Assembly: GCA_001724265.1 (NCBI GenBank)
Contig: MEDY01000053.1
Coordinates: 1-64,000 of the forward strand
Source of the DNA: Rhizaria sp. SCN 62-66
Lineage: Eukaryota
Direction of reading: 5' to 3'
Length of the DNA stretch: 64,000 bases
The first letter of the stretch is position 1. Each line of letters starts with the position of its first letter. Below, piece by piece: positions 10,901-59,542 of the stretch. The translations under genes were made by a program, and so were the position numbers. The notes under the pieces were generated by a model that worked only from the letters and a program-made list of their open reading frames with translations, made no database searches and was not told the DNA's origin.

Positions 10901-11199
10901 GCGACGGCGGAGGCCGAGGCGGGCTTGGCGGCGGCGAAGGCGGATGCGGACGCGGCGGCAGCGGCGGCGGCGGCGGCGCCGGTGCGGGGGTAGAGCCCGC
11001 GGGCCGCGGCGGCGACTTCAGGGGAAAAGGCAAGGCTGCGATTGAGCGCGGCGTTACGCGCTTCGGGCCCCACGGCGTGCGCGCGGTTGGAGCGCGTGGG
11101 GGAGCCCGTGAGCGTGCGCGGCGCGAGGCCGGTCATAGACGCGGCCATGCGGGTGGCGCGGGAGTAGGACTCCACGCGCACATCGGCGTCAAAGTCCAT
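7969..11199 (-). CDS. NDC1: Divergent Ndc1-family transmembrane nucleoporin (1076 aa, intronless)
   Basis: Several N-terminal hydrophobic helices. The C-terminal blocks RHLAMLDLAFSAQRDQRARGVFFS, ALVAAAVRAATDLVIAARDED and TTVRTALHRLLAAYRERL...HLDAYLRFEM follow the recalled Ndc1 consensus in order. Confidence 0.65.
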   Translation of the reverse strand: MDFDADVRVESYSRATRMAASMTGLAPRTLTGSPTRSNRAHAVGPEARNAALNRSLAFSPEVAAAARGLYPRTGAAAAAAAAASASAFAAAKPASASAVAAAGLAVRGVGAGAGAGLGAAPRAQAPANLADALLDVPSSLSSYVGEPDWEELAAQDRQYRSWAASVLQWREISLLVWAAVAALAVLAAGPLVARPSLLLSGVGAVLAALFRWQTLLATPLAAAAATALLYTRMSLIAPPRAVEPLGVAVRALLSRPFRALMVLVAAPLLACATHELLSYAAALPVSSATSADAATVAAQSDSAAAAVPGVADYVPLVSAMDLPIGDPSAFTSASATSNTNTATSNGAGANAYAHGASSLDGDANGGSAVAQAPWDGLAAGATVAPAPRAERLLYIAPSHRLYVRSCLAVTDPADPGSIYAASASAAAGRGHGYGHADALLSANAPVTGVAALRGAVPSLAHNPSVPLPALLESLPVAAAEVEGVALLPVTLDTPLQLSRALALLLGLVLALRGALTDELALSFHAVASRRARLPRLARALPAALAAAARDAVLLALSVVPLAALQSWLLPRAVALLHGGALFSLLPIAPARAALAAEPVSGLFAALLQSARVAATGAAKAAFATGGSPASAAAAAVDRVVSAAPAAVAGGFAPILARAVSDQTAYARALQSADAALPFAAAADAALRARVFAPLQCAAGHALYYVPQPYGLEALSDSTASVAQSLALLLLVALVWHLHSALAQVVFSGALRFGRYLLKGLTDSRDKALRHLAMLDLAFSAQRDQRARGVFFSRLDDLPLWPGSEPYAREQHARLRGGAQAALAAGVSVAAFASTACLTSGHRTPALWRSLHDVLIERLIHNTTRKVYRHLYAAHQAALDKHLALARAAAASASGAAPPPLELVAAGLAAPAQGLSARLWTLTPQERLRALLCDHALVAAAVRAATDLVIAARDEDVDNTVGAAQSAQALADALAQLELALRDLDTDPILAPAVGAGAGAGGLGGGAVGAEGEVVRKGAVVALGFVAPRAGAETALMATTVRTALHRLLAAYRERLDEWSFAPAVAKHLDAYLRFEM

Positions 11200-11594
11200 T
11201 GGGCAGGTAAAACCAACGCGAGACGGGAGAAAAAAGGGGCGGCAGTGGGGAGCAAAAGCACGGCCGCGAGAGCGGGAGTGCGTGGGGCGCGGACGACGGG
11301 AAGCGCTGCGCGAAGAGGGACTTGCTGACGGCCCAGGCTGCGGTCAGAGGGCGTTCAAAAGAGACGGGAAATGACGCGGTTCCGCTACGATGGCGACACA
11401 AAAAGCAAGAATAACTAAAATAAGCAATCGGAAATAATCCAGATCAACGTCGCAATGCTACACAACGGTCATATGAGGTTATAATTCAATTCCATGGTCC
11501 GGCCATCTCCGCTGTCAAGCAACGGTCTGCGGCAGCGGCCGTATGATCGGTCGGTCAGTCGGTCGCTGCCAGTTTGACGCCGTTGCTTGCTCGG

Positions 11595-36823: not shown

Positions 36824-39800
36824 TTAGCCGCGTCCGGGGTTGCTGGCCGCGGCCGCCGCAGCCGCGACTGCGTCGGCGGCCTCCTCCTCCGCCGCGGCGG
36901 CCTCTTGCGGCTGCTCTTGCGCCACCAGCCACGCCCTCTCGGCAGGGTTGGTCGCGAACTTGACCGTGACCAGCGGCACCGCGCCGGCGGCCGTCACGGC
37001 GGGCGAGGTCAGGTAGCGCTGCAGCATCGGGCCCAGCACGGGCTCGGGCGAGATCTCCACGCCCAGCGTCTGCGGCGCCAGCGCCGGCGCAGAGCTACCG
37101 CTCGAGCTCACAGCCTCGCTGCTGTTGCCGTTGCCGTCGCTGGTGGCATTGGGGAGGCGCGAGGCGATGAGCGCCTGCGTCTTGGTCCAGAGCACGGGCA
37201 TGGCGAGCTGGCGCGACAGCAGCTCGGCGAGCATCGTCGACACGGGCACCGAGTAGCCGTTAGGCAGCACGAAGCCGAGCTTGCGCGCAGCCTCGAGCAC
37301 GAAGGCCGAGGACGCGAGCGAGGCGTCCTTGTGCGAGAGCGCGAAGACCACGTCGCCGAGCAGGTTGGGCACGTAGCGGCCCGAGAGCCCCGAGAGGTCG
37401 GGCTCCGCGGTCCCGGGCTCGGGTTCGGCGTAGACGGACCCGCCGCGCAGCACGCGGGCGATGGCGACCCGGAACGGCGCCACGGCCTCGTGCAGCATCG
37501 ACGTGTGGAACGGCGTGTCGACCGAGGTGAAGGCGACTGACGCGCGCGAAGACCGCGGCGCGCACAGCCAAGAGCGCACTCGCGGCGCCGTGGGCGCATG
37601 CGCCGCGGGGATCTGGCCGAAGGGCACGAACGGCACGCGCACAATGTGCCCCGTGTCGTCGTCGTCGTGGCCCTCGGCCGCGGATGTGGGCACGGCCACC
37701 TCGTCGCCGAACTGCGCGTCGGCCTCGGCCAGGCGCGGGAACGCGTCTTCGGACGCCGCGGCGACGAGCTTCGCGAGCTCCTTCGCGAGCGCCTCCTCGG
37801 TTGGCACGCCGGGCTCCCCGTTGGGGCCCGGGGTTGCGGCGGCCGCGGCGGCGGCAGCGGCGGCGGCGAGCGCGTCGGAGGTCGGCAGCACCGCGTAGGG
37901 CGCCGCGGTGGCCGCAGCGAGCGCGGCGGCGGAGGCAGCGTCGTTGCTCTGCGCCGCCCGCGATGTCGAGTTCGCAGAGGTGTAGGACGAGTACGCGGGG
38001 CGCACGAAGAGCCCCTCGGCGCCCGCTGCGGCGGCAGCTGCGGCGGCGGCGTCGGCCTGCTGCTGCTGCTGATGCGAGTGCGAGAGCGCGGAGGAGGAGA
38101 AGGACGCCGGAATCACGGGCTCGGCGTTGCGCGCGCTCAGCAGCCGCGTGATGTCCGCGCGCGCGTCGCCGACGGCGGCCGTGGCGCTGGAGCGGATGAT
38201 GGTCACCAGCGCGTCGGCTGTGGGCACGGTGCGGTGGCGGAAAAGCCCGTTGAGCGTCTGGCGGAAGGTCTCGAGCAGCAGGTGCGAGCCGGCGAGCATG
38301 TACTGCTGTCCGGCCGAGTTGTGATTAACGACCTCGAGCAGCAGACCGGGGTCGGACCGCACGTGGCGCTCAGGCACGCGCAGCAGCGTCTCTTTCATCA
38401 TGGCCAGCGCGCGGCCGACCTCGATCTTGGCGACCTCGGCCAGCAGGCGCAGGTAGTAGGCGTACGGGTCGTCTTGCTCGTACCAGCGGGGCTGGATTGC
38501 CTCGCCCAGGTGCACGCGGTACGACGACACGGACGAGTACGACGCCGAGCGCTCGAGACAGCCTTTGGCCTCGGCGACGGCGCGCGCGAGCACGTCCGAG
38601 TCGGGGTCCGCGGCCAGCGCGGCGGGCGACAAGAACGGCAGCTTGGCGGGCAGCACAGCGGCCATGGCGAGGCGCGAGCGGCCCAGCGCGTCGCGCGGCA
38701 CGCACCGCTGCAGCAGCCAGCCGCGGAGGAAGACGAGCTCTGCCAGTGCCTCGAGCGGGAGGCGGGAGCCGGCGCCGCCCCGGCAGTCGGCCGCGGCGGG
38801 GTCCAGGTCCGAGCAGAGCGCAGCAACGGCGGAGAACTCGCCCAGGCTGTGGCCCGCGTACAGCGCGCCTGGGTCCAGCTCGTGCATGAGCGGGGACATC
38901 TGCGCCACACCTTCATCAGACGCCGCGGCAGCCGCGGTCAGAGCGGCGGCGCGGCGGTTGGCCTGCGTCTGCGCGTACACGGCAACCTCCTGCGTCCACA
39001 CCGTGAGCTGCTGGAAGTGCGTGTGGCATAGCAGACCCTGGCGCGCGGACTCGGGCAGCACGGCCAGCGAGAGCCCCGTGGGCGCGGTCGGAGTCGCGGG
39101 GCCCAGCAGCATGATGTGCTCGACCGAGCCGTCGACGACGTCGGCGTAGCGCTCCAGCAGCCAGTGCGGGATGTGAAACTGCGCCGCCGTCGACGCGATG
39201 GCGTCGTCGCGCACGGCGCGGGCACGCTGCGCGCGCTCGTGCGCGTCCACGGCGGCGTCCGACTCGAAGTCCTCGGCCGAGGACATGGTGCCGTCGAGCA
39301 GCTGCTGCGACGCGGCGACGGCGTCGCGCTCGACCGTGTCGGCCGCGGCGCCGCCGATGACCATGCGCAGCAGGCGGCGCCAGCGCCAGCGCACAGCGGC
39401 GTTGTCGAGCGGGATGCGCAGCGCCGAGGGGTTGAAGTTGGCGATGTGGTCGAGCGGAATCGCGTAGTTCTCTTGCGCCCACGCCGTCACGCGGCGCCAC
39501 ACGGCCGCGCCGACGTCGTTGCCGGGGGGCACGCCGGGCTGACCGTCGATAGAGCTGGCGTCGATGAAGGCGTCGCTGCCCTCAACGTCGGCGCCCGCGC
39601 TGGGGTCTAGGAAGCCGCGCGCGAGCCCGGCACCGCGCGCCGCGTGCCCGCCCTGCCCGCCGAAGACGAAGAACGACACGGGACGGGCCGCGGTCACGGC
39701 GGCGGGCAGCGCGGCCGCGGCGGCGGCGTCAGCGGGCGAGAGCGCGGCGGAGGGCTTCTTGGGCGTGATGCAGAAGGCCGTGAGCGTGGGCGAGTGCGTG

Positions 39801-42718
39801 TGCACGGTGAAGCCACCCTTCATGACCAGCGGGTCCGACGGGTTCCACTGCGAGGTTGGCTTGAGCGTCACGGGCGCGGGCGTCACGACCAGCTGCACGG
39901 GGTCTGTCTCCGCGCCAGCCTCTGCGGCTTCGGCCGTCTCCGAGTCCAACAGCTCGCCCTCGGTCGTGGCAGTGCCCGTAGCGCTGCCCGCAGAGTTCAG
40001 GCTGGGAATGCCTGAGGCCGCGGCGGCGGCGGCGGCGTCGGGCGCGAGCGAGGGCGTGGCGAGCGTGCGCGACAGCGGGATGAGCCCGAAGCCGAGTCCG
40101 CGCACCTGGTACGTGAAGGTGTGCTCGAAGCGGCCGCTGCCCTGGCCGCCATCGACCACGGGCTGCGACGTCACGCGCTTCACCTGCACCGTGAGCGCAG
40201 CGCCCTCGGTCACGGGCCGGATGAACTCGCATCGGAAACCGGTGATCTCGACCGGCGTCGGCACAGACGACGCGGTAAAGGAGCCAGAGATGCTCCCGTT
40301 CGCGTTGTTGCTGTTGCTGTTGGCGTCGTCTTGCGCGAGGACGGAGGCGAGGTGCTCGCGGACGGCGGCGGCAAGGACGCCGGCCATGGCGACGCCGTGG
40401 ACCGGCATCGTCGTGTGCAGCAGCATTGACTCCATCTCCACGTCGTCGCCCACTGTGATGTCGGGGCACTCGCCCGTCGCCATAGCGCTCGACGCCGCAG
40501 AGGACGCCGCGGAGGCAGCAGCGCCAGTGTTCGAGGCGCTGGCGTCGGTGTAAGAGCCCGCGGAGGCGGCGCCGAGCTGCCCCTTGTCGGCCGAGAGACG
40601 GGAGTACTGACTGCGCAGCGCATTGCGGTTACGGATCAGCTTCGACGCGCGGCGCTTCATCACGTCGATCCACTTGACGCCCGACGCCATCGCAGCGGCG
40701 GCCGCGGCCTCGCTGGACGAGTCCGAGGCGCCGAGGCCTGCGACGGCGACCGCGCTCTCGGCCGCCGAGCCCGACGCCGCGGCAGCGGCTGCGGCGGCCG
40801 CGGCGGCGTCGATGGCGGCCGAGAGCGCGGCGCGGTGGCGGATCGCGGCCAGCACCGCGGCGGCGCCGCGCTCACGCGCACGCATGCGCGAAGGCCGGCT
40901 GTAGATAAGCCGGTTCATGTCGACGAGCGAGCCCGCGGCGGCCTCGCCGCCGGCGCCGCCGCTGCCGGCCTGCGTGGTGGCCGCAGCGCTAGCCCAGGTG
41001 TCGAAGGCGCCCGCGGCCGTGGCCGTGCGGACCGGCATGAGCTGCGCGCGGACCTCTTCGAGCGCGTTGGACAGCGGCGAGATGCCCGCGAGGGGCACGC
41101 TGGCGTGGATCGGGTTGTGGTCGCCCGACACGAGCGCGAACGCCGACGACAGGCCCAGCGGGACGGAGAGCGTGAAGGACGCCGGCACCACGGGCCCTAG
41201 CCCGCGCGCGGCGCGGTTGCGGCGGCGCGCAGCGTCAAGCACGGCCGTCGCGGACCCGGGCTCCGCGGCCAGCCCGTCGAGGAAGGGCGCGATGGGCGCG
41301 CGCGTGGTCAGCGAGAGCTCGTAGCGCACGGCGTCGCGGGCGCGAGCGGCGCGCGGGGACAGCAGCGACACTGCGCGGCGCGCGCCGTCGTGCGCATAAT
41401 CCTCGGGCACCCAGCGCGGGTCGTTGTAGTCGCCGTGCACGTCGCCGCGCAGCACCGTGTACTTGTTCGACAGCGTCGCCACAGGTACTATGCCCAGCAG
41501 CTCGCCGCGCTCAGAGCTCTCGGCGTCGTCTGCGGCGACAGCGTTCTCGCTGGCGCCAGTGCCCTTGTTGTGACTGAGAGGTGCGTAGATCGGGTATCCG
41601 ACCCAGCTGGTGATGATCACGGTCTTGCCGGTAACGTGCGTGGCGCCGCACGTGAGCGCGGAGCGGTCGCCGCCCGTCAGGCCGGAGACCTGGGTCACCG
41701 CGCTCGTGATCACGACGCGGCGCGGGTCGGCGCGCGCGCCGCGGGGCAGCGTGCGCACCAGCGCGGCCGTCTTCTGCCACTGGTTACCCTGTGCCTGCGC
41801 CTGCTGTTGCTGCTTCTCGAGGTCACTGCCGCTGCTGTTGCTGCTGACGCCGTGGTTAGGGAAGCTCATCGTGTCTCTAACTAGCTCCGGCGCGAAGCGG
41901 GGCGCGAAGGTGCGCGTGAGCTGCCGCCACGCAGAGGCTGAGAGCGCGGTGGGGCCGTGCGCAGAGGCGGCGAGCGACGCCGCGGCCGCGGGCGACTGCG
42001 TGATCTCGGCCGACGCCGGCCCGGCGGTGTCAGAGCCGGCGTTCGCGTGCGCGCCGGCGAGCGCCTCGACAACCGCCACGACCGCGGCGCGCGAGTCGGG
42101 GAACAGTGGTGCGTACGGGCGCGCCGCCGCCTCCTCCACGGCCGCCGAGACAGGTTCGCGCTCGCCCACGGCGGCGATGGTGTCGTGGCGCGTCACACGC
42201 GAGGACGCGTGCATGAGCGAGGACAGGTCGTCGCGCGTGCGGGAGAGCGCGGGGAAGAGCGCACGCACGATCGACGGCCACGCCAGCGCGTACAGCGTCG
42301 CCTCGGGCGGCAGCGGCGCCGACAGCAGCAGGTGCGGGGCGCCGGCGCCCACCGCCGTCGCCGCGCCCGCGTCCGCGTCGGCGTTGGCGTCCGCGTCGGT
42401 GTTGGCGGTGGCGTCGGCGGCGGTGAGCGAAAAGAGCGAGATGCCGTTGCCATTGCCCGACAGCGGACGCGGCAGCAGCGGCGTCGCGAGCGGGTTCCCG
42501 TGCGGCAGCGTGACCGTGAGCAGCTGCAGCGCGCGGTTCAGCGGGTCGCGCGCGTGCCGGGCGGCCGACAGCGCCGCGAAAGTGCTGTCGACGCGGGCCA
42601 GCTCGGCGAAGATCGGGTCTGTCGGCGGCCGCAGAAGCGCCGCGGAGGGCTGGTCGAACAGCGAGTGCGACCGCGGGGACAGCGCGCGCGGCCTGTACTC
42701 GCCCTCGGCAGTCTCATC

Positions 42719-42752
<34 letters not shown>

Positions 42753-45571
42753 CTGATGTCGCTGTCCGTCGTGGAGCGAACGCGCGGGCGGCCGCGCGTC
42801 TCGGCGGTGCGCCAGGCGGCCTCGAGCGCAATGGGCGCCGACACGGGCGCGACGCGCGACGTCACACTCAGCTCCGCGCCCGCGCGCGGCTCCCAGGCCG
42901 CCTTGTACACGCTGAACACGGCCGCGTGATTGTGCTCGGCCGCCGCGGCCTCCTCGGAGAGCATCCAGCCCAGCAGCGGCTGCGCGTGCACCGCCGCGGC
43001 GTGCGCGTCGGCCGCCGCGGACGAGTCCGCCGTCACGGAGCCGCCACCCAGCGCGGAGGGCACCGAGGGGCCGTGCGAGTTGTGGCTCTTGTGTGGCGCG
43101 GGCGGGCTGGTGGCCTTGCTCAGCGTGAAGCGCATCGCAAGCACCGGCAGCTCCGGCGGCGGCGGCGGGCGCAGCGTGTTCCCAATCGCACCATTTGCAC
43201 TTGCGCTCGCAGGCGCATTCGCGGTCACACTTGTGTTCGCCGCAGATGCAGCCTTGTTTGTCGGAGCAGAAGCGTTGGCGTAGTGATGAGTCCTGCACTT
43301 GCTGTCGTCGACGGAGTTGGCCCCGCCGATGACGGTGCCGCCGCTGACGCCCGGGTCGGCGCTCGCGCTGTTGATCGCGGCCTGCTGGTGCAGCATCGCC
43401 GCCGCGGTGCCCGTCGCGGACTGGTTGGCGTCGAGCACGACCACGACGGCGGGCTGGGCAGGGTGTGCGTGTCCGTCGAACACGCTCACGCTGTCGCCCA
43501 GCGCGCTGCTCGCAGCGGCTCGGCTGCCGCCCGCGGCCGCTCTGGCGCCGCTGCCGCTCGCACTGCTGGTGAAAGCGCTGGCGGGGCGGTCGAGCCCCAG
43601 CGCGGCGGCCGAGGTCACGACGGCGGCCGCCGCCGGGTCGCACTCGTGCTCGAGCAGGTACCGCAGCAGCGCGGGCAGCCGCGACGGCGTCTCGGCCACC
43701 TCGCCCTCATTCTCGCTGGCGCTCGCACTGGCGCCGTGGGCGGCGGCGCGGTGGGCCTTGCTGGCTTTGAGCGCGCGCCGGTGCAGATGCGCGTAGTAGC
43801 GGTCGAGCTCGCCCGTCTCGCGGGCCGCCTCGAGCGCTGCCATCAGCTCCGCCGTGCCACGGGCGCCGACCGGTCCGTCGATGGGCAGCGGGGAGACGCC
43901 GATGGCCGCCACGGAGAGGCCGGTCTCGCCCTGCCGGAGGCCCTGCAGCGGCGAGTAGCGCACGTACTTGGCGCCGGAGCCCGAACCAGCGGCCGCAGCA
44001 GAGGCGACGTTGTCGAGGTCGTCACTGACACCGTCGTCATTGGTATTGTTGTTGTTGCTGTTGTCACTGCTGCTGTTGTTGATGGGGGCGTCGACCTCCG
44101 CACGGTAGCCGTAGACGGTGAGCACCATGCCGGGACGCAGCGCGAAGACGGCCGCCAGCGGATTGGCGCGCGTGCTGACCGCGCCGACCCCGGCCGCGCC
44201 CACGGGTCCCAGGCCCACGCCAGGAGTCTCCTTGTCGCTGCTGCTCGCGTCACCGGAGTTGCTCGCAGCGCCGTTCGCCGCGGCGGCGTGGCTGCCAGGC
44301 GCTCGCTTGCCCCTGGCTGCGGCGGCCGCGGCGGCGATGCTGCTGTTGAGCGCGGCGGCCTCGGTCGACGGCACGTGCACGCGCGAGTGCACCAGCGCAG
44401 AGCACCACGATAGCAGCGCGGGCGGCAGCCGCACGGGCCCCTCAACCGACGCGGCGCTCGCGGGCGCGCCGTCGCTCTCGGCCTGCGCGAGCGCCTGCGC
44501 CTGGGCCTGCGCGAGCTCGGCCGCGATGTGCTCCTCGGTGGTGTTGTCCAGCGTCGCCTGCATCCACTGCAGCACCTTCATCGTCGCGCGCGCGCCCAGC
44601 GACGCGCCCTGCGCCGTGCGCGTCCAGCGCTCCTCGGCCACCACAGTCTCCTGCCGCGCCAGCAGCGTGAGCAGGGCCTCCATGAGCCCCGCGGAGACGG
44701 GCCGCGCGGCCGCGGCGGAGGACCGGTGCAGCAGGGTCGCGGCCGGGAACGCGGCGGCGGCGGCGGCGGCGGGGGAGGCGACGTCAATGCCGCCCGCGCC
44801 AGACGCGGCCGCCGAGGCTGAGGTCGCCGAGACGAAGGGGATCACCACGGTCGCGATCGGGATGAGGTCGTGCGCGGCCAGCACGGACGCGGAGGCGAAG
44901 GCCGGCGAGGCGGGCACCACGGGGGGCCTCGCCACCGACGTCGCACCGCCGACACTGAGCCCGGCGGCCGTGTCGGCGGCGGCGGCCGCGGCGGCGGAGG
45001 CAGCGGCAATGGCCGAGGCGGCGGCGCGGGTGTTAGCGGCGCGCGGGGCCGTGGCGGCGGCGTGCGTGACTTCGATGGTCTTGAGGGAGAGCAGCAGCGG
45101 CAGCTGCGAGGGCAGCTGCTGCACCGAGACGAGCGGCGATGTGTTGACGTGGAACAGCGACGAGGCCGAGAGCTCCAGCGCGGGCAGCGACGCGTGGAAC
45201 AGCACGGGTGTCGCCGCGCTCGCGCTCGCGCTCGCACTCGCGCTGGCGTTGATGCTGTCATTGCTGCTCTCGTCTGCGCTCGAGCCGTTCGGAGACGGCG
45301 AGGACGAGTACAGGCGGCGCAGGGACGCAGGGGCGGGCAGGCAGGCGCTGGAAAACGCCAAAGACGCCGGACGGAGGGGCGCAGAAGCGCGGGCGCGGGT
45401 GGGAAGGAGGCAACGGGACGCAGAGATTGTAGCCGACGATGGGAGCGGCGGTGCGAGACCGACCGCAGTCTTCGCCGTAGCCGTGGAGCTCTTGCTGGCC
45501 AGGGGGAGTGAGACGGGGAAGACGCGGAGCGCAGCGGCCCGGGCGCCGAGGCGCGCGCGGAGAGAGAACAT
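36824..45571 (-). CDS. Fungal/mycobacterial-type FAS-I-derived dehydratase (MaoC double hot-dog) + malonyl/palmitoyl transferase protein with a probable mitochondrial presequence (~2915 aa, intronless)
   Basis: Motifs in FAS-I order: NPLAAVFALRPGM, LAWPSIVRALFP...DLSSLMHASS, SGDHNPIH, VHG, FVFGGQG, THFQQ, AGHSLGEFSA, LVFLRGWLLQRCVPRDALGRS, LLEVVNHN, VDTPFH, GRYVPNL, AELLSRQLAMPVLWTKTQ, VEISPEPVL. First ATG is at 45571. Confidence 0.85.
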
Positions 45572-46253
45572 ACCCTGAGGAAGGAAGGAGGGAAGAGGGA
45601 GAGGCGCCGCCTTGCTAGCCACAGAGGTGGAGGACGCTACTCTTGAGAAAACTCGGGGTCTGCGTGGCGAATACAGAAGTAGACAAGATATCAGCAAGCG
45701 GAAAAGTTAGAAAAAAGCACAAAAAATCAATACACAATAGGCTTGCAAAGCGGAGTGATTGTTGCAGAGAGGTCTACAGCACGGCGAGAGCGAGATTTCA
45801 ATCGGTCGGGGTAGCAGAACGTGGTGAGATCCGGCGGGATTTGCGCGCGGTAATCACACAACCGCGCAAAATGCACAAAATGGGTTAGCTATTACACGCC
45901 GTAGAAATGCTAACCAAGCGTGTTAGGGCGTATAACAACGATCCACCGAGTCGACTGCCTTGCCGAACGACTTAGTCCCCCCAAGCCACCACTTTCGCGA
46001 GTCCGCAGCGCTGCGGCCGCTGCATCGAAAACGTGCCTGAGGATATCGTGAATCAAAAGCACAATATATCGATGCATTCCCATCCGTTTCCGCACTTGAG
46101 ACGCCTTTGACAGGATATTTTAGTAGTGTTTATACCTTATTCAAACAATTATGCATGCCTCACGCTCGTTCTCTGTGCCCTAAATCTTTCCCCAAACAGG
46201 TCACCCCTCGCGTCACCCCCAGTCTATCTCGATCGGCAGCCCGGGCTCTCACG

Positions 46254-48067
46254 ATGCGCGCTGACCGCGAAACCTCCCGCCTGCTGCGCGAGGGCAGCTC
46301 TTCGGCCGCGGCCACGTCTTCCCTGTACGACGGCGGCGACGACACGGACCACGGCGCCCACTCGGAGGCAGCCCCCATCCTAGTCAAGGCCAACAACTCC
46401 AACACCGCCATGAGCTCTGCGGACAACGCGCAGTCCTTTGGCACCGCGTCGGGGGGCTTCTACGCCCCCAGCGCGGGCTCGGGCGACTACTACGCGCTCT
46501 CGGACGCGGACGTGGACCCCGAGCACCTGCGTCAGTTCGACCTCGTCGTCTCGATGCGCCAGGTCGACGTGATCCGCGGCCCAGTCAAGGGCATCCCCGC
46601 ACTCGACCTCTTCATGTCCTGGTGCGCCTTCTGCGGCGTGCTACCCAGCGCCGCGCTCTTCCACCCCACCTCGGGCACGCTCGACCTGCGCTCGCTCATG
46701 ATCCTCTCCTACCGCGCCTTCTTGTGGCTCGCGCTCGTCTTCATGACGCTCGTCGACATCGTCCACGCCGTGTCCCGTGAGGGCCCCTCGGCCTGGACCG
46801 CCGTCTCTATTGCCGTCTTTATGTTCCTCGCCTGCGCCGCGTCCTTCGGGCTTGCGCGCGACGTGTTGCGGCGCCAGGTCATCCAGACGCGTGTGACCCA
46901 GGTGCTCACTAACTCAGGCGACCCCGAGCTCTCGCGCTCCTACCTCTCGGCGCGCTTCTACTTCTCGCTGGGCTTCGCCGTGCTCGTCACCGCGCTGGGC
47001 GTTGTCGCCGACGTGCTTGACAGCTCCGCTTTCCTCCAGGACTCGTCTTCTCCACTCTCGTTGCGTCTGGGCCCCGGCGGCATCCTGCTGTACCGCGTCG
47101 CCTCCTTCTTCGTTCAGCTGCAGGTCACGGTGGGCATCACGGTCATCTCCGCGCTGCTTAGCGTCTTCCAGGTCCGCGTGCTCTCGGCCGCGCGTGCGCT
47201 CACCGTCGAGGAGGAGACCACGTCGGTCGAGCAGGCCATTCGCCGCCTCATCGACCTCGACATTACCGTTTCGCACGCCGCGCACAAGTACGCGCGCGAC
47301 ATGGCTATCGTGCTCCTCAGCTTCATCCTCAAGTTCTTCCTATCTGCAGTCTACCAGGTTCGTCATATTACGACAATATATACCGTCTTTGCGCTTCGTA
47401 TCATGCTACTCGTGTTAAGTCGTCTTTTGGTTCAGGTTTTAGTTCCGAATCTCCATATATCTCACCACAAATCATTTTTCTCTTCTTTCCTGCTTTACTC
47501 TTCTTGCGATGCATCTTTGTCCTCCCTCAGGTGACGTCCAACTCGAAGGACCGCTTCATCGCGCGCGAGCAGTTCGGCGTCGCGGCAGCCATCGACATGG
47601 TCGTGCAGCCGGGCATCGCGGCGCTCTTCCTGCTCATCTCCATCGGCGTGCTGAACCAGGAGATCGAGTACCTGCTCAAGGTCTGCGCGCGCTTTAGGTA
47701 CGTCACGCGAAACACGCACATTTGTCATCGGTGAGATACTGTATAGCTGCATATCAATGCTGGCTTTCGAGTTTCACTTTGTATTACGCTGTTTTATAAT
47801 TGCCCTATATCACAGAACATTCGATATCTCACAATACCCCCATAACCGCTTTCTGTCTCTTTGCCCTTGTACAGTTTGCGCCAGCGGTCGAAGCCGCAGC
47901 ACGACAAGAAGCTGGTTAAGGAGCTGCAGACGTACTCGAAGAACGGTGATTTCGATTTCCGCCTCTACGGCTTCGCGGTGACGCTGTCGACGGTGTGGAA
48001 GCTCGTCGCCGTGTCCGTGTCGACATACATCCTCCTGCTCCGCTTTAAGCGCTGGGGCATCATCTAA
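46254..48067 (+). CDS. Gustatory-receptor-like (7TM ion channel superfamily) membrane protein (~487 aa; exons 46254-47357, 47531-47697, 47875-48067)
   Basis: About 7 hydrophobic segments. The C-terminus FRLYGFAVTLSTVWKLVAVSVSTYILLLRF matches the GR/GRL TM7 signature (F..xGf.....TYhhhhhQF). Introns are frame-consistent. Confidence 0.7.
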
Positions 48068-48496
48068 GCATCCGCGACGCTTCACTGCGCTTAATGGGCT
48101 ACAAAGCAAGCAAGCGACTGCACGTGCTCATTGCGAGCTGTAGTTGTTGTGACAGGTGGGGTGTGTACGAGTAATACCTAGGAGTAATAAGAACAAATTA
48201 TGATTTATTGACTATTTTAATACAGAATGATATGAGTAATGAAAACAAGAAGCGAAATTGGAGCCTTGTCACTGACACTGAACTAGGAGAAGAAGAAAAA
48301 CGATGTGTATTAATCAACACATCGTTGTCTGGGTCAAGATATTCGCGTCATTGTTGCTTCTCCCTAGATGCATAATTGCATTATATTATTGTCAACTTAC
48401 ATGGAACATATTGTATTGGCTACTTAATTTTCTGACATGAGACTAACTATGATAAACTCATCGAGATATTTGTGTCATTGTTTCTTCTCAACAGCG

Positions 48497-51400
48497 ATGT
48501 GGCGGCAGCGTGTTTTGGCTGCCCAATCGCAGCCCACCGCTCTTTCCACAACTTCCCCGCCCACCCCGGCGTCTCCCACAGTCGCCCCCGCATTGTCAGC
48601 TCTTGCCCCTGCGCGCCACATAGAGCCCGCAGTTGACCGTGATACCGCGTCAACCTGGGGAGACGAAGACGAGCTATCACAACTTCAAGCCTCGACAATA
48701 TCTGCTTCCGCGGCTCATGTCGCTGCTGCTGTTAGCTCTGCAGACATGAGTGCATCGCAGCAACAGCGCAAGCGACGCGGCAGCGCCAAGCTTGCGGCGC
48801 CCGCGCTCCAGCCGACCTCTGAGGCGTCCCTCCGCAGCGAAAGCGCCGCCACCGCATGGCTCTCGTTTACCCCCCACCCGGTGTTTCCCGCCAAACTCGT
48901 GCGCCTCTCCTCCCTCTTCCCCCCGCCGCTCACCGCAGCGACGCCGCGATCCCCGGCCGACGCGGCGCAGGGCAGGGCGACGGTGGCGCTGCTGCCGCAG
49001 CCGCTGTCCGCGCCCGCGCTCGCAAGCGCCGCGCTGGTCGCGCTGGCCGACGGTCGTTCGCGTCCTCTTCCCGTCCCTCGGTCAAGCGCTCTCCAAGGCC
49101 AGGCCGCCGCAGGTGCCGCTGGCGGCGCGCGCGCTGCGTCGGCCGTGGCGTCGCTGGCGCTGGCGCCGCGGTTCGCGGCCGCGCCGCTGCTGCTCGTCGA
49201 CGGCGACCGCGGCCGCCGCGCCGCCGCCGCGGCCCGCCTGCGGGTGCTGCTGCCGACGGCCGTCGTCGCGACGACGGCCAGAGCGGCGGCCGGGCAGGCA
49301 GCGCCGCCGCATGCTGCTGCGAGCAACGCTGTTGTAGAGTCTGACGACGACGGCGACGGCGACGGCGACGGCGATACCGACTCGAGCGGCGCTACCGATT
49401 CGAGCGGCGTTAGCGCAAGTGGTGCCTGCGCAGCCACGATCGCGCCGCCGCCGCCGCTCGTGCTGCTGCTGTCTGCGCGCGCCGCGCTTGCGTTCGTGCG
49501 GCGGCAGCGGCGCGTCCCCGGCAACGCGCCCACCGTCATCCTCGCCCCGGCGACCGCGTGCTCAATCCCACGGTCACAGTCGCTCTCTGCGGAGGACACG
49601 GCAAGGGTGCTGTTGCAGCTGCTCTGCGCGCTGCCACGGAGGCACAGGCCTGCGGTGCTGGCGCTGGCGGAGACTGAGGCAGAGGCGGCGGTCACAGCTG
49701 CGGCGGCGAATGCTGCTGTCACCGCTGTTTCAACTATTCCACAGCCAAAGCCAACGTCCAGCTCTAAGTCGAAGCAGCTGCAGGTTTCCCCGAATGTATG
49801 CACTCTTGGTGTGAGGGTTGTGGAGTGGGATTGCACTTATAACCCGCCTTTTACACGCGTATTCTCTGCTACAGACGATCACGAGCAGCTATCACATGAC
49901 TCTGACCAGCAACTCATGGGTTTGGCGACTCTAACACTCCAGTCCTCTGTGGCAAAGTCATCCGCCCCCGCTGCTTCTGTCGCGGAGACGGTGGCCGAGG
50001 CAGTGCTCTCGCTGCTGGTCGGCGACAGCGACGCTACCGTCGACGCGGCCGTGGCTGCCGCGAAGCAGCGGGACGCCGCGGCTGTGCGCGCGCGCTGGGC
50101 CCGGACGCAGGCTCTGCGGGCCGCGGCTGCCGTCAACACGAACAAGACGGACATCGACGCGAGCAGCGGTGAGAGCAGCGATGTTGATGTCATTGAGAGC
50201 GGCGACGACAACGCCGAGAGTGCAAGCGACAGCGACGTGATCACGCTGTCCGACAGCGACGACGACAATACTCACATCGCGACTAAGAAGAACACGAACG
50301 CAAACGCTCTCTTGATGCGCGACCACGATAGCGGTAGCGACAGCGACGCGACTCCGCGGAGCAAGGCGTTGACGCAAGCTCTGCCGCGCCCGCCTCTTCC
50401 CCCGCATGCCTTGACGGCCGCCGCAGCGACCGCGGTAGCGTCTCTCTCAGTCACGCACAGACCCGCAACCGCGCTGACTGCGGCGGCCGTGGCGGCGGTG
50501 CTCGCGACCAGGGACGCGCGCGCGCTCGTCACTACAGTCACCGCGCTGCCGAAACCGGCTCCGGTCTTTGCCACCGCTGCCGCCGCCGCCGCGCAGTCCG
50601 CGGCGCAGTGCGGGGATGTCGCGGTGTACTTGCCCGACGCCGCCGCGGCGCGGCTGTGCGCGCGCTTGCTCTCGGTGGCCGCCGCTGACTGGCCCCCCGG
50701 CCCCGCGCCCGCGCCCGCGGTGCTGCTGCTGCAGCCCGGGGACGCTGCCGCCGCGGTCGCCGCCGAGGCCGACGCGGCGGACACGGCGGCCGCGGCCGCG
50801 CACGCGCGCCGCCGCCGCGAGCGCAGTCGCGCGGAAGGCCGCAGTCTTAGCAGTCTCGATGCAGAGCCCACGGAGTCCTCCGCGGACGCAGACCGGCCGT
50901 GGCGGCGACCTCGGCGCGTGTTCGTGACTGGCGCGCCGCTGGCGGCCTTGAGCGGCGTGCCGGCCGTGCGCGTCGCGGTCGACGCAGCGCGCGTGGCCCT
51001 GCCGTGGGCCTTTTTTCTGCCGCCGCACTCGACAGCGACTGCTGCAGTCACTGCTGCTGCTTCCGTCGCTGCTGTTGTCGCGGCCGCGCAGCGGTGGGCC
51101 ACCGCGGCGGGCGCGAGTGTCGCGCTCGAGACGGCGACGCCGCGGTGGCTGTCGCATCGCCGCGCCCAGCTCGTCGCGGCCGGCCCCGCCGCTGCGCCTG
51201 TGTTGCACCTGGGCGCCAACGATACCCAAGGGGACGACAGTGAAACCGCGAATGGCGGCGGCAGTGGCGGCGAGTACGGCGTGTACATCACACTCGGCAG
51301 TGCCCTTGCGCCGCGCAGTGCACGTGACAACGAGCTTGGCAGTGATGCGTTTACTCTCAGTGACTGCGAGCGTGGATTGATGTCGCCGGCACTCGCTCTT

Positions 51401-53443
51401 GCTGCCTTGGCGTCGCCGCCGCACCTGCTGCCAACCACAAACGCGTTTGCGCGCGCTCGCGCTCTCGCTACACTGGCCTCATTGCAACTGCTTACACCGA
51501 CCTCAGGTAACAACAGTCACAGTCTGAATCTGTCCGCGAGCGCCGCTTCGATGGAGACTCCTGCCATCTCACTGCTGGGCTCGCTTGTCGCCGCACTGAG
51601 CCCGCCGCTGCCACCGTTTTTAGCGCGTGGTCTCTTGCTTGCGCTCCGTGCCGGCTGCGCTGCCACATTCGCCGCGCTTGCTGCCGTCATCTCAGTCTCT
51701 CTCGAAGCATCCGCTGTTAATGACAGCAACGAAAGCAATAACGATGACAGTGATGCAAGCGTGAAACATGATGACTCTCTGACTGGAGTCGACCCGCTGC
51801 GTGTGTTCTCGCCCCGCCGCGCCGCCGCCGCCCGCACGCGCGCGTTTGCAACCACCCGCGGCCGCTCCGCGCTGCGCGGGGTGCGCCAGGGCCGCCGCGC
51901 GGCGGGCGACGCGGTGCGCGCGCTCTCGCTCGCGGGCAGCTTCGCCAACGACAGCGCGGCTGCGAACGCCGCCGTGGTCGCCGTGGCGGCTGCGACGACT
52001 GCTGCGACGTCGAACAGCGCAGGCGGCCTGAGCAACAGCGGTAGCAGCGGCAACGGCGGCGGGGCGTTTGTTGCGACTGGAGACGTTGGCGCTTTGTGGG
52101 GCGGTGACATCACAGCTTTGTGCGCTGTCATGGCCGAGGCACAGCGGCAACGGCAGTTGGCGACTGACCCACGCCACATCAGTTCGAAGAGCAGCAACGA
52201 CTCTCGTACTAGTAGCAAGCGAGGGCGCTTTGACGTGCGACACGAGCGTGACAGTGAAAGCGACCGCAGTGCGAGTGATGACCACGGCGGCAGCGACGAC
52301 GACGTTTACATCGGCGCCCGCCCTCTCGCCAGCCCCATAGCTGCGACCGGGGCAAAGTCATCGAAAGCACGGAAATCAGGGAAATCTGTCTCCGCAGTGG
52401 ATCCAACTGACGACAGTGCAGCTGTTGCCAAGTGGGCCCGCGGGGCTGGCCTGAACGCGCCCACGGTCACTGCGGCGCTGCGGCGGCTTGACTTCCTGCA
52501 GACCCGCCTCGCCCGTCTCGCACCGCTCACGCTGGACGCTCTGCGCCAAGCCGAGGTCGACGCCGCGCTGTCTGCCTCGACTGCCGCGACGACCGCAACT
52601 GCAGTAGTCGCAGACACGACCGCTGCGACCGCGGCAGCAGCTGCGCTGTTCGACGCCGCGTCGGCGCGCGTCCCCGGGCTGCGCGCAGCGCACGCGGCCC
52701 CGCACGCGCTGCGCGCCGCCGCGGACGAGTGCGGCACCGCCGAGGCCCGCGCCCGCGCCGCGCTGTGTCTGCTGGCGGGCGGTGCGGCGGCCGCCGCGGC
52801 GGCGTACGTCGGCGTCCGCGTGCGCGCGGCGACAGGCACCGCGGGCCACGCGTGGGCCCCGCTGGCTGCCGGCGGCGCCGATGCGGGCGTCGTGCTATTT
52901 GCCGACGACGAGAGCGCGCTGACAGCTGCGATCCCAGAGACTAACGCCCCCGCAGCAGCAGGGACAGGGGCCGTGACTTCTGCAGTGCCTCTTGTTGTGG
53001 CTTTCCTCGCTGTTGAGATGGACCCTGCATCACTCTCAGAAGTATCACAGTCACAACGACGTTCGCAGTCTCACACTGCTCAGGGCGTGATGCGCGGCGT
53101 GTTTCCCGTCGCAGACCCTGCGCTGTTGCCCGCGCTTGCCCCGCACGTGTTCACATCTCCATCGTACTCTACAGCAGCAGCTGCCGCAACAGCAGCGGGG
53201 ACCCGCAACGGTAGCAGCTCAACCAGTCAAACTGCGAGTGTCAACGACGGCGGGCTCGAACAAGTGCTCGACGCTGCTGTCGCCCGCGTCATTGCGCGCG
53301 AGACGGGCGCTGCGCTGCCTGATGCGGTTGAGGCGGAGGCTGCTGCGGATGCGGACCGGTACGACATCAGGCGCGGGGTGGGGCGCGAGCGCGTGATTCA
53401 GTCAGGGCCTGAGAAAGGAAAAATCCTGCGTGACGTATTTTAA
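48497..53443 (+). CDS. Degenerate DEAH/RHA-family helicase-like protein, probable pseudo-helicase (~1648 aa; in-frame upstream ATG at 48437)
   Basis: Relic motifs in the correct order: LLLVDGDRGR (II), LLLSARA (III), GDVAVYLPD (IV), RRVFVTGAPLAALSGVPAVRVAVDA (V), HRRAQLVAAG (VI), HA2-like ISLLGSLVAALSPPLPPFLARGLL...GC...LAAVISV, GDITALC and KWARGAGLN. Confidence 0.65.
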   Translation: MWRQRVLAAQSQPTALSTTSPPTPASPTVAPALSALAPARHIEPAVDRDTASTWGDEDELSQLQASTISASAAHVAAAVSSADMSASQQQRKRRGSAKLAAPALQPTSEASLRSESAATAWLSFTPHPVFPAKLVRLSSLFPPPLTAATPRSPADAAQGRATVALLPQPLSAPALASAALVALADGRSRPLPVPRSSALQGQAAAGAAGGARAASAVASLALAPRFAAAPLLLVDGDRGRRAAAAARLRVLLPTAVVATTARAAAGQAAPPHAAASNAVVESDDDGDGDGDGDTDSSGATDSSGVSASGACAATIAPPPPLVLLLSARAALAFVRRQRRVPGNAPTVILAPATACSIPRSQSLSAEDTARVLLQLLCALPRRHRPAVLALAETEAEAAVTAAAANAAVTAVSTIPQPKPTSSSKSKQLQVSPNVCTLGVRVVEWDCTYNPPFTRVFSATDDHEQLSHDSDQQLMGLATLTLQSSVAKSSAPAASVAETVAEAVLSLLVGDSDATVDAAVAAAKQRDAAAVRARWARTQALRAAAAVNTNKTDIDASSGESSDVDVIESGDDNAESASDSDVITLSDSDDDNTHIATKKNTNANALLMRDHDSGSDSDATPRSKALTQALPRPPLPPHALTAAAATAVASLSVTHRPATALTAAAVAAVLATRDARALVTTVTALPKPAPVFATAAAAAAQSAAQCGDVAVYLPDAAAARLCARLLSVAAADWPPGPAPAPAVLLLQPGDAAAAVAAEADAADTAAAAAHARRRRERSRAEGRSLSSLDAEPTESSADADRPWRRPRRVFVTGAPLAALSGVPAVRVAVDAARVALPWAFFLPPHSTATAAVTAAASVAAVVAAAQRWATAAGASVALETATPRWLSHRRAQLVAAGPAAAPVLHLGANDTQGDDSETANGGGSGGEYGVYITLGSALAPRSARDNELGSDAFTLSDCERGLMSPALALAALASPPHLLPTTNAFARARALATLASLQLLTPTSGNNSHSLNLSASAASMETPAISLLGSLVAALSPPLPPFLARGLLLALRAGCAATFAALAAVISVSLEASAVNDSNESNNDDSDASVKHDDSLTGVDPLRVFSPRRAAAARTRAFATTRGRSALRGVRQGRRAAGDAVRALSLAGSFANDSAAANAAVVAVAAATTAATSNSAGGLSNSGSSGNGGGAFVATGDVGALWGGDITALCAVMAEAQRQRQLATDPRHISSKSSNDSRTSSKRGRFDVRHERDSESDRSASDDHGGSDDDVYIGARPLASPIAATGAKSSKARKSGKSVSAVDPTDDSAAVAKWARGAGLNAPTVTAALRRLDFLQTRLARLAPLTLDALRQAEVDAALSASTAATTATAVVADTTAATAAAAALFDAASARVPGLRAAHAAPHALRAAADECGTAEARARAALCLLAGGAAAAAAAYVGVRVRAATGTAGHAWAPLAAGGADAGVVLFADDESALTAAIPETNAPAAAGTGAVTSAVPLVVAFLAVEMDPASLSEVSQSQRRSQSHTAQGVMRGVFPVADPALLPALAPHVFTSPSYSTAAAAATAAGTRNGSSSTSQTASVNDGGLEQVLDAAVARVIARETGAALPDAVEAEAAADADRYDIRRGVGRERVIQSGPEKGKILRDVF

Positions 53444-57652: not shown

Positions 57653-59542
57653 ATGCTCCGCACTGCGCACACACCGCTGCAGCGTCTGGCGACCGCGGCC
57701 GCCCGCCTCGCCTCTCTCACGCCCGCCACTGCCGCTCCAGCGGCGACGACGACTGCTCCCGCGCTGCACCCCCGCACACACGGCACTGCGCGCTCTTTAG
57801 TTACTAGCTCCACATTTAGCACACGCTTACCTAGCCCTCACACCCGCCTTAGCGCGTCCCTAGCGCACTCCAAGTCCCTGCACTCGCGCTCGCAGCGCTC
57901 TGCCCTTTTGCTCTCGTTCCCGTTTTCTTCCGCTGCCGCCGCCGCCACCGTGGCCGCCGCTGCCCCGGCGGCCCCCGCACCCGCGGGCTCCGGTGCTGCG
58001 TCTGGCCGCTCCGCGCTCGCGTCCAACCCCGTGAGCTACTCGCTGTCCGACTCGTCCGTGATCGCGCCCCCCCAGACATTCCGCTACGTGTCCCACAACG
58101 GGCTGCCCCAGGCCAAGTACCCGCTCCCGGCCGGCACCACGCTCGACTCGGCGTTTGCCGACGCCTCGCGCGCGGGCCCCGCGGCTGACCCCTTCGCGCT
58201 GGCGGCGGGCGAGCTCTCTGCGATGGCCACCAGCGTGCACACAGTGGTCCACTCGCCGCACCCCGTGCTGCGCGCCGCCGCCGACTACCTGCTCGCCGGC
58301 GGCGGCAAGCGCTTCCGCCCGCTCGTGGTCTTCCTCGTCTCGCGCGCCGTGGGCGTGGCGGCGCGCGCGGGGCCCGCCGCGGCGCCCGAGTTCCACCACG
58401 ACGATAACACGGCCACCGCGGCCGCCAACGCCTCGCGGGCAGATGCCGCGCACGCCGCCGCGGACGCCGCCGCCGAGGCCGTCGTAGCCGCCTCACTGAC
58501 CGTCAACGCCAGCACGAGTGCAAGCATTGCGCCCTATGCGCCATATGTGTCCCCTTCGCTATGGCTCGGTCCCCACACCTGCCTCAACAACAACACAGGC
58601 AATGCCTATGCCTCTGCCTCTGCGTCTGCCTCTGCATCTGCTTCTGAGTGCGCGAGCGCGGGCGACGTCGCCGAGGGCAGCGCGCGCGTGGCGGCGACGC
58701 AGCTGGGCGGCGCGCCCTGCGCGGCTCTGGACTCGCTTCCTGTACACGGCCCCGCTGCGCAGCAGGCGCGGCTGGCCGAGATTATCGAGCTCATCCACGT
58801 CGCCTCACTCTACCACGACGACGTCGTCGACGAATCCGCCGCGCGCCGCGGCCGGCCCTCGGCCAACAACGCCTTCGGCGACCGGCTGGCCGTGCGCGCG
58901 GGCGTCTTCCTGCTCGCGCGCGCGTCGACGTTGCTGTGCCGACTCGAGAGCCACGGCGCGACGCAGCTCGTGTCGACTGTGATCGACCAGCTCGTGCGCG
59001 GCGAGGTGCTGCAGATGCGCGACGCGAGCGCCAACCAGGCCGGGCACCTGCACAGCAACCTCGACGCCTACGTTACCAAGTCCTACTACAAGACGGCATC
59101 GCTCATCGCCAACGCGTGCCAGGCTGCGGCCGTGCTCGGCGGCCACGGGGCCCCGGTCCAGGCCGCCGCCTACGAGTACGGCAAGTCGCTGGGGCTCGCG
59201 TTCCAGCTCGTGGACGACATCCTCGACTACACGGCGACCGCAGAGGAGCTGGGCAAGCCCGCGCTGAGCGACCTCACCCAGGGCCTCGCCACTGCGCCGC
59301 TGCTGTACGCCGCAGACGCGTTCCCCGAGCTCTTCGCGCTACGCGAGCGCAAGTTCTCGCGGCCCGGCGACGTGGCGCGCGCGCTCGAGTGCATCGCGGC
59401 CGTGGACGGCATCGGCAAGGCCACGGTCCTCGCGCGTGCGTGCGCTGAGAACGCCGTCGCCGCGGCGCTGCAGTTCCCGCCGGGGCTCGCGCGCGACGCG
59501 CTCGTGCGCCTCGTCGAGAAGACGCTCACGCGCCGTAAGTAA
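57653..59542 (+). CDS. COQ1: Long-chain trans-polyprenyl diphosphate synthase (COQ1/PDSS1/SPS-like) with a mitochondrial-type presequence
   Basis: GGKRFRP, IELIHVASLYHDDVVDESAARRG (FARM), GEVLQ, YYKTASL, GLAFQLVDDILD (SARM) and DLTQGLATAP. The N-terminus is Arg/Ser/Ala-rich and lacks acidic residues. Confidence 0.92.
   Translation: MLRTAHTPLQRLATAAARLASLTPATAAPAATTTAPALHPRTHGTARSLVTSSTFSTRLPSPHTRLSASLAHSKSLHSRSQRSALLLSFPFSSAAAAATVAAAAPAAPAPAGSGAASGRSALASNPVSYSLSDSSVIAPPQTFRYVSHNGLPQAKYPLPAGTTLDSAFADASRAGPAADPFALAAGELSAMATSVHTVVHSPHPVLRAAADYLLAGGGKRFRPLVVFLVSRAVGVAARAGPAAAPEFHHDDNTATAAANASRADAAHAAADAAAEAVVAASLTVNASTSASIAPYAPYVSPSLWLGPHTCLNNNTGNAYASASASASASASECASAGDVAEGSARVAATQLGGAPCAALDSLPVHGPAAQQARLAEIIELIHVASLYHDDVVDESAARRGRPSANNAFGDRLAVRAGVFLLARASTLLCRLESHGATQLVSTVIDQLVRGEVLQMRDASANQAGHLHSNLDAYVTKSYYKTASLIANACQAAAVLGGHGAPVQAAAYEYGKSLGLAFQLVDDILDYTATAEELGKPALSDLTQGLATAPLLYAADAFPELFALRERKFSRPGDVARALECIAAVDGIGKATVLARACAENAVAAALQFPPGLARDALVRLVEKTLTRRK

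Follow-up and report, generated by a model that had tools for sequence, protein, structure and literature searches.

The window analysed here is the 64,000-nucleotide stretch at positions 1 to 64,000 of contig MEDY01000053.1 (assembly GCA_001724265.1, Rhizaria sp. SCN 62-66). Its minus strand carries, at 36824..45571, a gene for a large protein that combines a dehydratase (DH) and a malonyl/palmitoyl-transferase (MPT) domain, both resembling their counterparts in type I fatty acid synthase (FAS-I), and that we call the DH-MPT protein. The frame is open from a TTG at 45697 down to 36824; translation from the first ATG at 45571 yields 2915 residues followed by the stop codon, compared to 2957 residues from the TTG. 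The open reading frame (ORF) of ~2915 residues claimed in the earlier note was confirmed by the ORF lists, by translation, by codon composition and by P0002, an identical 2915-residue product called separately in a protein collection. The in-frame GC content at third codon positions (GC3) averages 0.91 with a minimum of 0.62 over 58 segments of 50 codons spanning the entire ORF, and the first (~0.7) and second (~0.6) codon positions both lie visibly below it, whereas GC content is 0.40-0.50 in the flanking intergenic DNA and in a putative intron next to it in a neighbouring gene of the window. The uniform GC3 thus indicates a single coding exon over the entire 8.7 kb, with the low-complexity inserts as part of it, and the DH-MPT gene is a real single-exon nuclear gene of an uncultured eukaryote.

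Upstream, a divergent gene begins 584 bp away, and downstream, 560 bp of 40% GC DNA separate the DH-MPT gene from an epimerase gene; these short spacers leave no space for extra exons nearby. A credible spliced joint was not seen in the contigs of four runs mapped to the window, all four of which consist of assembled contigs; the joints listed were not counted as splices because the shorter side of each is at most 31 letters long and lies at GCN-type repeats. The coding DNA of the window has a GC content of ~70-76%, compared to 40-50% between genes, and spurious long ORFs lie opposite real genes, such as one of 818 residues at 41957-44413 on the plus strand that faces the DH-MPT gene, so that ORF length alone is no evidence of a gene here.

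The complete MPT domain (36917..39691, minus strand; residues 2003-2927 of P0001, ~925 residues) was identified by profile, motifs and a structural model. It contains an oxyanion-type GGQGG motif (39647-39661), followed by GHSLG (38840-38854), FLRG (38720-38731) and PFH (37505-37513); the earlier note had placed the last three motifs, together with the SGDHNPIH motif of the DH domain, exactly. In an alignment with canonical FAS-I MPTs (A3, 22 sequences), the catalytic Ser is nearly invariant, and R341/G342 and H747 fall in invariant columns. The domain holds two large inserts of ~85 and ~195 residues, the larger of which is of low complexity (~37553-38140). A phmmer search against the PDB at E<=1e-5 returned FAS-I beta chains only (12 distinct sequences, best E 4e-8), with the match centred on GHSLGE...FLRG...VPRD..GRS and further pieces collinear. 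With hhalign, residues 2217-2489 matched an alignment of 9 FAS1 sequences at 99% probability (E 2.5e-18), and residues 2719-2781 did so at 78%. By contrast, Pfam Acyl_transf_1 was not hit at E<=10, as the inserts split the domain.

The AlphaFold2 (AF2) model of residues 1985-2957 has a mean pLDDT of 61.8; most of the core lies at 75-94, and the inserts score low. VIA alignment of model residues 19..943 against residues 1337-1738 of M. tuberculosis FAS-I gave a Z of 28.2 and a root-mean-square deviation of 2.8 over 387 residues, compared to a Z of ~26.5 over ~308 residues for FabD, and Foldseek E values were ~1e-9 to FAS-I and ~1e-3 to FabD. The aligned fold reaches residue 943 of the 973 in the model, and only a short Ala/Glu-rich C-terminal tail with the stop codon follows (36824..36916, minus strand), so that the ORF ends ~30 residues beyond the modelled fold, as expected from the earlier claim of a complete MPT right at the end of the ORF.

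The MPT domain is preceded by a linker (39692..40072, minus strand), which spans from the last DH profile match to the start of the modelled MPT fold, and by a MaoC-type hot dog domain split by an insert (40073..41197, minus strand). The DH of FAS-I, of the hydratase-2/MaoC type, has its catalytic Asp and His in the pattern G-D-x-N-P-[LIV]-H, and the hot dog of the DH-MPT protein contains the corresponding hydratase-2-type SGDHNPIH motif with the catalytic Asp and His (41105-41128). The motif is followed by an insert of ~210 residues (~40433-41059) and the HG helix PVHGVAM (40385-40405), whereas the closing strands of the fold lie near residues 1815-1843 of P0001. The Pfam family MaoC_dehydratas scored 21.9-24.6 bits, below its gathering cut-off of 27. 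A DH profile built from 12 canonical segments matched in two collinear pieces with 24.7 bits, compared to a best score of 4.1 in 300 shuffles, and hhalign against the FAS1 alignment gave 34% probability (E 4e-4), again collinear. Motif and profile together point to the catalytic hot dog of a FAS-I DH. The order DH to MPT claimed in the earlier note is thereby recovered, being collinear with FAS-I by both phmmer and hhalign, and of the profile check proposed there hhalign recovered MPT at 99% and DH at 34% probability, whereas Pfam remained below its cut-offs.

The region upstream of the catalytic hot dog (41198..43495, minus strand; residues 735-1500 of P0001) is a candidate, at the level of a lead, for a non-catalytic N-terminal hot dog or SBS-meander. 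Its ESM Atlas neighbours, obtained with residues 735-1500 without the catalytic motif, score 0.87-0.89 and all belong to MaoC, SBS_FAS or FAS1_DH_region clusters, a score of 0.9 being the line above which a match counts as more than a lead. The one hhalign hit there, residues 1131-1184 against the FAS1 DH region, is collinear but weak (P 0.034). Therefore, of the double hot dog DH described in the earlier note, the catalytic C-terminal hot dog is supported by sequence and the N-terminal one by leads only. The 'post-ER structural region' of that note found no support, as hhalign of residues 1-1450 against the 9-sequence FAS1 alignment reached no better than P 0.034 and Pfam gave nothing in this region. 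MAFFT alignments A1 and A4, in which the DH region was set against canonical FAS-I, misplaced the catalytic motif due to the inserts, and were excluded from folding. Further upstream lies an Ala/Ser-rich, mainly low-complexity part of ~590 residues (43496..45274, minus strand), which is coding by GC3 and has no detectable relative: neither Pfam nor hhalign gave a match, and the best E against the N-terminus of P0007, the protein described next, was 0.73.

P0007, a protein of 1338 residues from a different metagenomic eukaryote, is the sole relative found. An exhaustive HMMER pass with query residues 1480-2679 over 1.84 billion protein representatives (E<=0.001) returned 49 proteins, namely the query itself and 48 weak matches on the Ser-Arg block. 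Among the latter, 47 were rejected as family members, being ordinary FAS-I proteins or fragments that score 67-8739 bits against canonical FAS-I, in each case far higher than against P0007 or the query. Seven longer ones among the 47 were scanned; they hold the usual Pfam sets of FAS-I and are apparently pieces of canonical genes, and P0033 (903 residues, from the DH region to AT) could be either a fragment or a stand-alone protein of the canonical kind. Scanning JGI metagenomes with the two-member alignment and two peptide patterns matched 138 stretches, only one of which coded for a relative, the locus of P0007 itself; the family size of two is thus a lower bound. Word-indexed protein searches with the whole query and with P0007 each returned only the sequence searched with, a null result that is uninformative on family size because low-complexity words swamp the index.

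P0007 is encoded by a single ORF on a 185-kb metagenomic eukaryotic contig, where it adjoins DOT1-like and mitoribosomal-L15-like genes; no synteny was found between the window and its locus (L001). Its residues 565-1166 align with FAS1 residues 1632-2080, from the hot dog through MPT in one stretch, at 99.7% probability (E 1.9e-25), although Pfam is blind to it (14 bits for MaoC_dehydratas; 13.6 bits for Acyl_transf_1, compared to a gathering cut-off of 32.7). It contains VGDHNPIH as the counterpart of the DH motif, and its MPT keeps the catalytic Ser, ARG, PFHT and AGQGT. BLASTP between the query and P0007 gave E values of 1e-14 and 1e-8. The two proteins share motifs that are not found in canonical FAS-I (KLPF, NS.GQQY..AGSHL.LE, ELLS.Q.A.PV.W..TQ and SPEPVL), as well as two places of insertion, one behind GHSLGE and the other between NPIH and HG, and both terminate 40-60 residues past SPEPVL. 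A profile of the two against the PDB matched FAS-I at 4.7e-16 and FabD at just 0.036. The ESM Atlas neighbours of the N-terminal 560 residues of P0007 are FAS-I SBS, meander and DH-region clusters (0.80-0.88, again a lead), and a PDB search with its residues 200-720 found no match, FAS-I included. The MPT model of P0007 runs to residue 1170, whereas yeast beta ends at 1086. As the yeast MPT domain is completed by the N-terminus of the alpha chain, according to the domain description in PMC6972935, the MPT is complete, as in single-chain FAS-I.

A decaying FAS-I relic or an assembly artefact without function is very improbable. Such an origin would accord with the extreme divergence to which Pfam is blind, with the composition of the 2915-residue protein (Ala makes up 22% and Ser 10%, and low-complexity runs are long) and with the record being a metagenome assembly. 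However, the frame runs for 8.7 kb without a stop at a uniform GC3 of ~0.91, and the catalytic residues are preserved in two lineages. Moreover, the same stretch recurs in runs that several studies made on bioreactors, wastewater and activated sludge (shares of 1.00, 0.88, 0.88, 0.35 and 0.31), and DNA contigs of another run cover the DH-MPT gene with 0 differing letters.

Other parts of FAS-I were not found. A tblastn search of the 64-kb window with five full-length FAS-I proteins (E<=1) matched just the DH motif and the MPT blocks, with no AT, ER, ACP, KR, KS or PPT, and the lone extra match was at chance level (E 0.73, window 395-490). The same search of the 21-kb L001 likewise gave the DH motif and MPT only, and in the ORF hhalign detected neither AT nor ER when run against the FAS1 alignment. 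The absence of these domains from the ORF and the window, as stated in the earlier note, thus holds. Altogether, the profiles, motifs and fold, with catalytic residues kept in both domains, support the claim made there of a stand-alone piece: the protein is a very fast-evolving DH-MPT didomain that descends from single-chain FAS-I of the fungal/CMN type.

The likeness to FAS-I extends to the domain order, which is shared with yeast Fas1 beta and with the single-chain enzymes of M. tuberculosis, Schizochytrium, Vitrella and Euglypha, and to the motifs GD.NPIH, GQG, GHSLGE, RG, VPRD..G.S, N.N...QY..AG and PFH. Both MPT models align with FAS-I MPT at Z 28-29 over 375-389 residues. Compared to canonical FAS-I, however, the query lacks all the other domains, is only ~25-30% identical even in the MPT core, with Pfam scores below the cut-offs, and possesses large inserts in both domains in addition to ~690 extra N-terminal residues that include a presequence-like start. 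Among named canonical FAS-I proteins, phmmer of the query scored best with that of Euglypha rotunda (63.7 bits), followed by a 3786-residue FAS-I in one chain and a short protein that clusters with the type I FAS of Schizochytrium. In a tree of MPT domains, made by a quick method after 4 of 23 chosen rows without an anchor motif were dropped, the branches of the query and P0007 measure 4.7 and 7.6 changes per column, compared to a median of 0.9, that is, 5 to 8 times the canonical median. With such long branches the tree is unable to place the pair, which falls unresolved beside Euglypha, so that the phylogeny called for in the earlier note proved uninformative.

One explanation for a chain of this kind is that it belongs as a subunit to a FAS-I that is split in an unusual way, in the cytosol or an organelle, with AT-ER and ACP-KR-KS-PPT encoded elsewhere in the genome. 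Among known forms, the Rhodosporidium chain that starts near DH continues through ACP-KR-KS-PPT; the DH-MPT chain differs from it in ending after MPT. The fungal-type layouts presented in PMC6972935 are either single-chain or cut in MPT, in the KR/KS four-helix bundle or in the SBS sheet; the Ascomycota, Tremellomycetes and Rhodosporidium types are natural splits, the last of them cut in the SBS sheet upstream of DH. Splits thus occur at several sites, and engineered three-part versions still assemble (PMC6972935). The search for further domains was confined to the 64-kb window and the 21-kb L001. In the natural fungal splits as described in PMC6972935, however, the pieces jointly hold the full domain set and form a barrel, and a chain of DH and MPT only is not among them. 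Inserts of ~210 residues in the hot dog and of ~85 and ~195 residues in MPT would be hard to house in a tight barrel, and together with the very long branches they make a split organellar FAS-I less likely. In addition, the protein has a presequence-like N-terminus and ~590 further residues that match no FAS-I part, no other FAS-I piece lies within the 64 kb or within the 21 kb around P0007, and P0007 also stops where the query does, once the MPT is complete. We consider a split FAS-I improbable.

The N-terminus of the DH-MPT protein (45275..45571, minus strand; residues 1-99 from the ATG) resembles a mitochondrial presequence in composition. Residues 1-99 contain no Asp or Glu, the first acidic residue being at position 100; the segment is rich in Ser, Thr and Ala, and its first 90 residues include 10 Arg and 2 Lys. 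P0007 is similar, with an Arg-rich N-terminus of 31 acid-free residues that contains 5 Arg (first acidic residue at 32). In composition, both N-termini thus accord with the apparent mitochondrial targeting named in the earlier note, although the maximum helical moment of the DH-MPT protein in this region is only 0.30. In eight of nine neighbouring ORFs the first acidic residue occurs by position 63; the exception is a polyprenyl synthase, in which it occurs at position 133. Polyprenyl synthase is mitochondrial in many eukaryotes, and the long acid-free N-termini of this enzyme and of the DH-MPT protein may both represent the long mitochondrial presequences of this organism. Given this parallel, the simplest reading of the acid-free, Arg-rich N-terminus is mitochondrial import, and the segment is a putative mitochondrial presequence.

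We therefore tentatively favour, as one possibility, that a fragment of FAS-I was relocated to mitochondria, where it would supply the activities of MCAT and HTD2. As the chain lacks a carrier, condensing or reducing domain, it would have to act with a separate ACP. In the proposed mechanism, the DH-MPT protein would enter the mitochondrial matrix via its N-terminal presequence; MPT would transfer malonyl from CoA to the soluble ACP of mitochondria, the step of MCAT/Mct1, and DH would dehydrate 3-hydroxyacyl-ACP, the step of HTD2. One FAS-I fragment would thereby cover two steps of dissociated mitochondrial fatty acid synthesis, which leads to octanoyl-ACP for lipoate and to longer acyl-ACPs. 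The low-complexity inserts would form surface loops, tolerable in a free-standing enzyme but probably not in the packed FAS barrel. That two very distant members still have the catalytic residues of both domains argues that the enzymology has been retained.

The folds also match those of the enzymes that it would replace, MCAT/Mct1 (FabD type) and HTD2 (hydratase-2 type). The MPT models share the MAT fold with human MCAT (Z 24.5-26.4), and the MaoC hot dog is likewise shared with HTD2. However, MCAT and HTD2 are separate small proteins of FAS-II descent, whereas DH-MPT is one chain of FAS-I descent, and by Foldseek E value the match to FabD falls 6 to 11 orders behind that to FAS-I. Literature searches on DH-MPT chains, fusions in mitochondrial fatty acid synthesis, fungal FAS splitting and mt-SAF36/38 found no such architecture described. 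The statement in the earlier note that no described protein is of this kind therefore stands for the architecture, but not for the folds, since human MCAT, mt-SAF36 and mt-SAF38 are already reported as mitochondrial proteins with them. What is new is the stand-alone, probably organellar form and the extreme divergence; the domains themselves are familiar.

Several observations weigh against relocation to mitochondria as the explanation. An acid-free N-terminus rich in Arg, Ser and Ala would also fit a plastid transit peptide or plain low complexity, and two neighbouring ORFs of unassigned function (459 and 1668 residues) also start with acid-free segments, of 36 and 62 residues. Pfam misses both domains at its curated cut-offs, and some of the resemblance between the models and FAS-I MPT comes from the input, since AF2 worked on alignments of FAS-I sequences. 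Over the DH part of P0007 the AF2 pLDDT is below 50, so that the structural comparison proposed in the earlier note succeeded for MPT but not for DH, and the double hot dog is left with leads as its support. The very long branches fit a loss of the original function too, and the search for FAS-I parts covered the two loci rather than the whole genome. Contigs of a polyA metatranscriptome lie on four stretches within the ORF (1, 15, 1 and 1 differing letters), but this is weak evidence of expression, since such contigs also lie on intergenic DNA; DNA carry-over is possible and transcription is not firm.

Structural similarity search further revealed that the best or joint-best neighbour of the MPT models of both the query and P0007 is mt-SAF36 of T. 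brucei (PDB 7pua/7pub, chain Fg). The models compared cover window positions 36827-39745 and L001 positions 7901-11500, and kinetoplastid sequences were absent from the folding alignments. The Foldseek E values of the two models are 2.6e-9 and 2e-15, and VIA gave Z values of 28.1 and 29.0 with 428-436 residues aligned, exceeding both FAS-I and FabD (~290-310 residues for the latter). As the aligned span is longer than that of FabD, the trypanosome factor seems to carry MPT-like extra elements. At the sequence level, a family profile of the query and P0007 matched mt-SAF36 at E 3.2e-6 (28 bits), and a 90-residue piece of the query had mt-SAF36 as its best PDB match (E 0.002). By contrast, the second half of the P0007 MPT matched FAS-I at E 1.4e-5, with mt-SAF36 not among the matches, and no kinetoplastid protein appeared at E<=0.001 in the scan of 1.84 billion representatives. 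The sequence support for a specific tie of the DH-MPT family to mt-SAF36 is thus weak and uneven.

These similarities raise the alternative that the protein is mainly a mitochondrial scaffold or assembly factor that binds pre-ribosomal particles, with catalysis secondary or lost. According to the description of the intermediates in PMC8784144, the MCAT homologue mt-SAF36 and the double hot dog protein mt-SAF38 share assembly intermediates of the mitoribosomal small subunit, and human MCAT is presented in PMC9892005 as an assembly factor of that subunit. A role as a scaffold would also fit the fast evolution and the large inserts. Nevertheless, the two trypanosome factors, although mitochondrial and of the same two folds, are separate chains at different sites of the particle as described in PMC8784144, and are therefore no obvious split form of the DH-MPT protein. 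Together with the intact catalytic sets in two very distant members and the unevenness of the sequence tie, this makes a mainly structural role unlikely. A combined scenario, in which the FAS-I fragment displaced both the FabD-type MCAT and HTD2 in mitochondria and also helps to assemble the mitoribosomal small subunit, is quite unlikely. If true, the fusion would be a 'Rosetta stone' tying the transacylase to the hot-dog assembly factors, and a type I piece inside a type II pathway.

Alternatively, the protein could act in trans in some other lipid or polyketide pathway, or be a CoA-ester hydratase/transferase, and in either case have no part in mitochondrial fatty acid synthesis. The MPT of FAS-I also moves palmitoyl between ACP and CoA, and MaoC hot dogs include enoyl-CoA hydratases; among the ESM neighbours are MFE-2 hydratase-2 clusters, so that an (R)-specific enoyl-CoA hydratase joined to an acyl-CoA transferase or a thioesterase-like MPT can be imagined. 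However, both members retain the Arg for binding the malonyl carboxylate, no partner genes for another acyl pathway were found near the DH-MPT gene or P0007, and positive evidence for such a pathway is lacking, which leaves this alternative improbable too.

Type I megasynthases are usually regarded as one solution and dissociated type II systems as another, each in a compartment of its own. If the DH-MPT protein is indeed organellar and of FAS-I descent, fragments of a megasynthase would be reusable as ordinary soluble enzymes, and two steps of mitochondrial fatty acid synthesis would be replaceable by non-orthologous parts. Such proteins are overlooked by domain databases, as Pfam fails on both members. 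In addition, the protein could provide a natural minimal DH-MPT unit for the engineering of fungal FAS, and a third lineage for asking why malonyl transacylases and hot-dog proteins recur around mitoribosome assembly.

The window is eukaryotic, with genes on both strands. Neighbouring genes encode SPT5, an Ndc1-like nucleoporin, a choline-transporter-like protein, an NAD-dependent epimerase, a NOX/ferric-reductase-like protein, a polyprenyl synthase and a kinesin-2 motor, and a tRNA-Gln (CTG) at 1189-1262 on the minus strand is the sole RNA gene detected. The polyprenyl synthase gene (57653-59542, plus strand) encodes an N-terminal extension of ~360 residues, the first 132 positions of which are acid-free. 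The ORFs of 459 and 1668 residues (46155-47534 and 48437-53443, both on the plus strand) match no Pfam family at E<=0.01; the former diverges from the DH-MPT gene across the 584-bp spacer. The kinesin-2 motor (KIF17/OSM-3-like; 4185-5546, minus strand) has a metagenomic protein as its closest relative (83% identical); the hits after it are 55-64% identical and spread over many phyla, and its next-best match (55%), from a fish assembly, carries a contaminant flag. Kinesin-2 is the motor of intraflagellar transport, and its presence suggests that the organism is flagellated or ciliated. The NOX/ferric-reductase-like gene (16021-21464, minus strand) is divided into two ORFs, with Ferric_reduct at 20562-21464 and FAD_binding_8/NAD_binding_6 at 16021-20241. 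The 320-bp gap between them (47% GC) is probably an intron, indicating that the organism has introns, though few.

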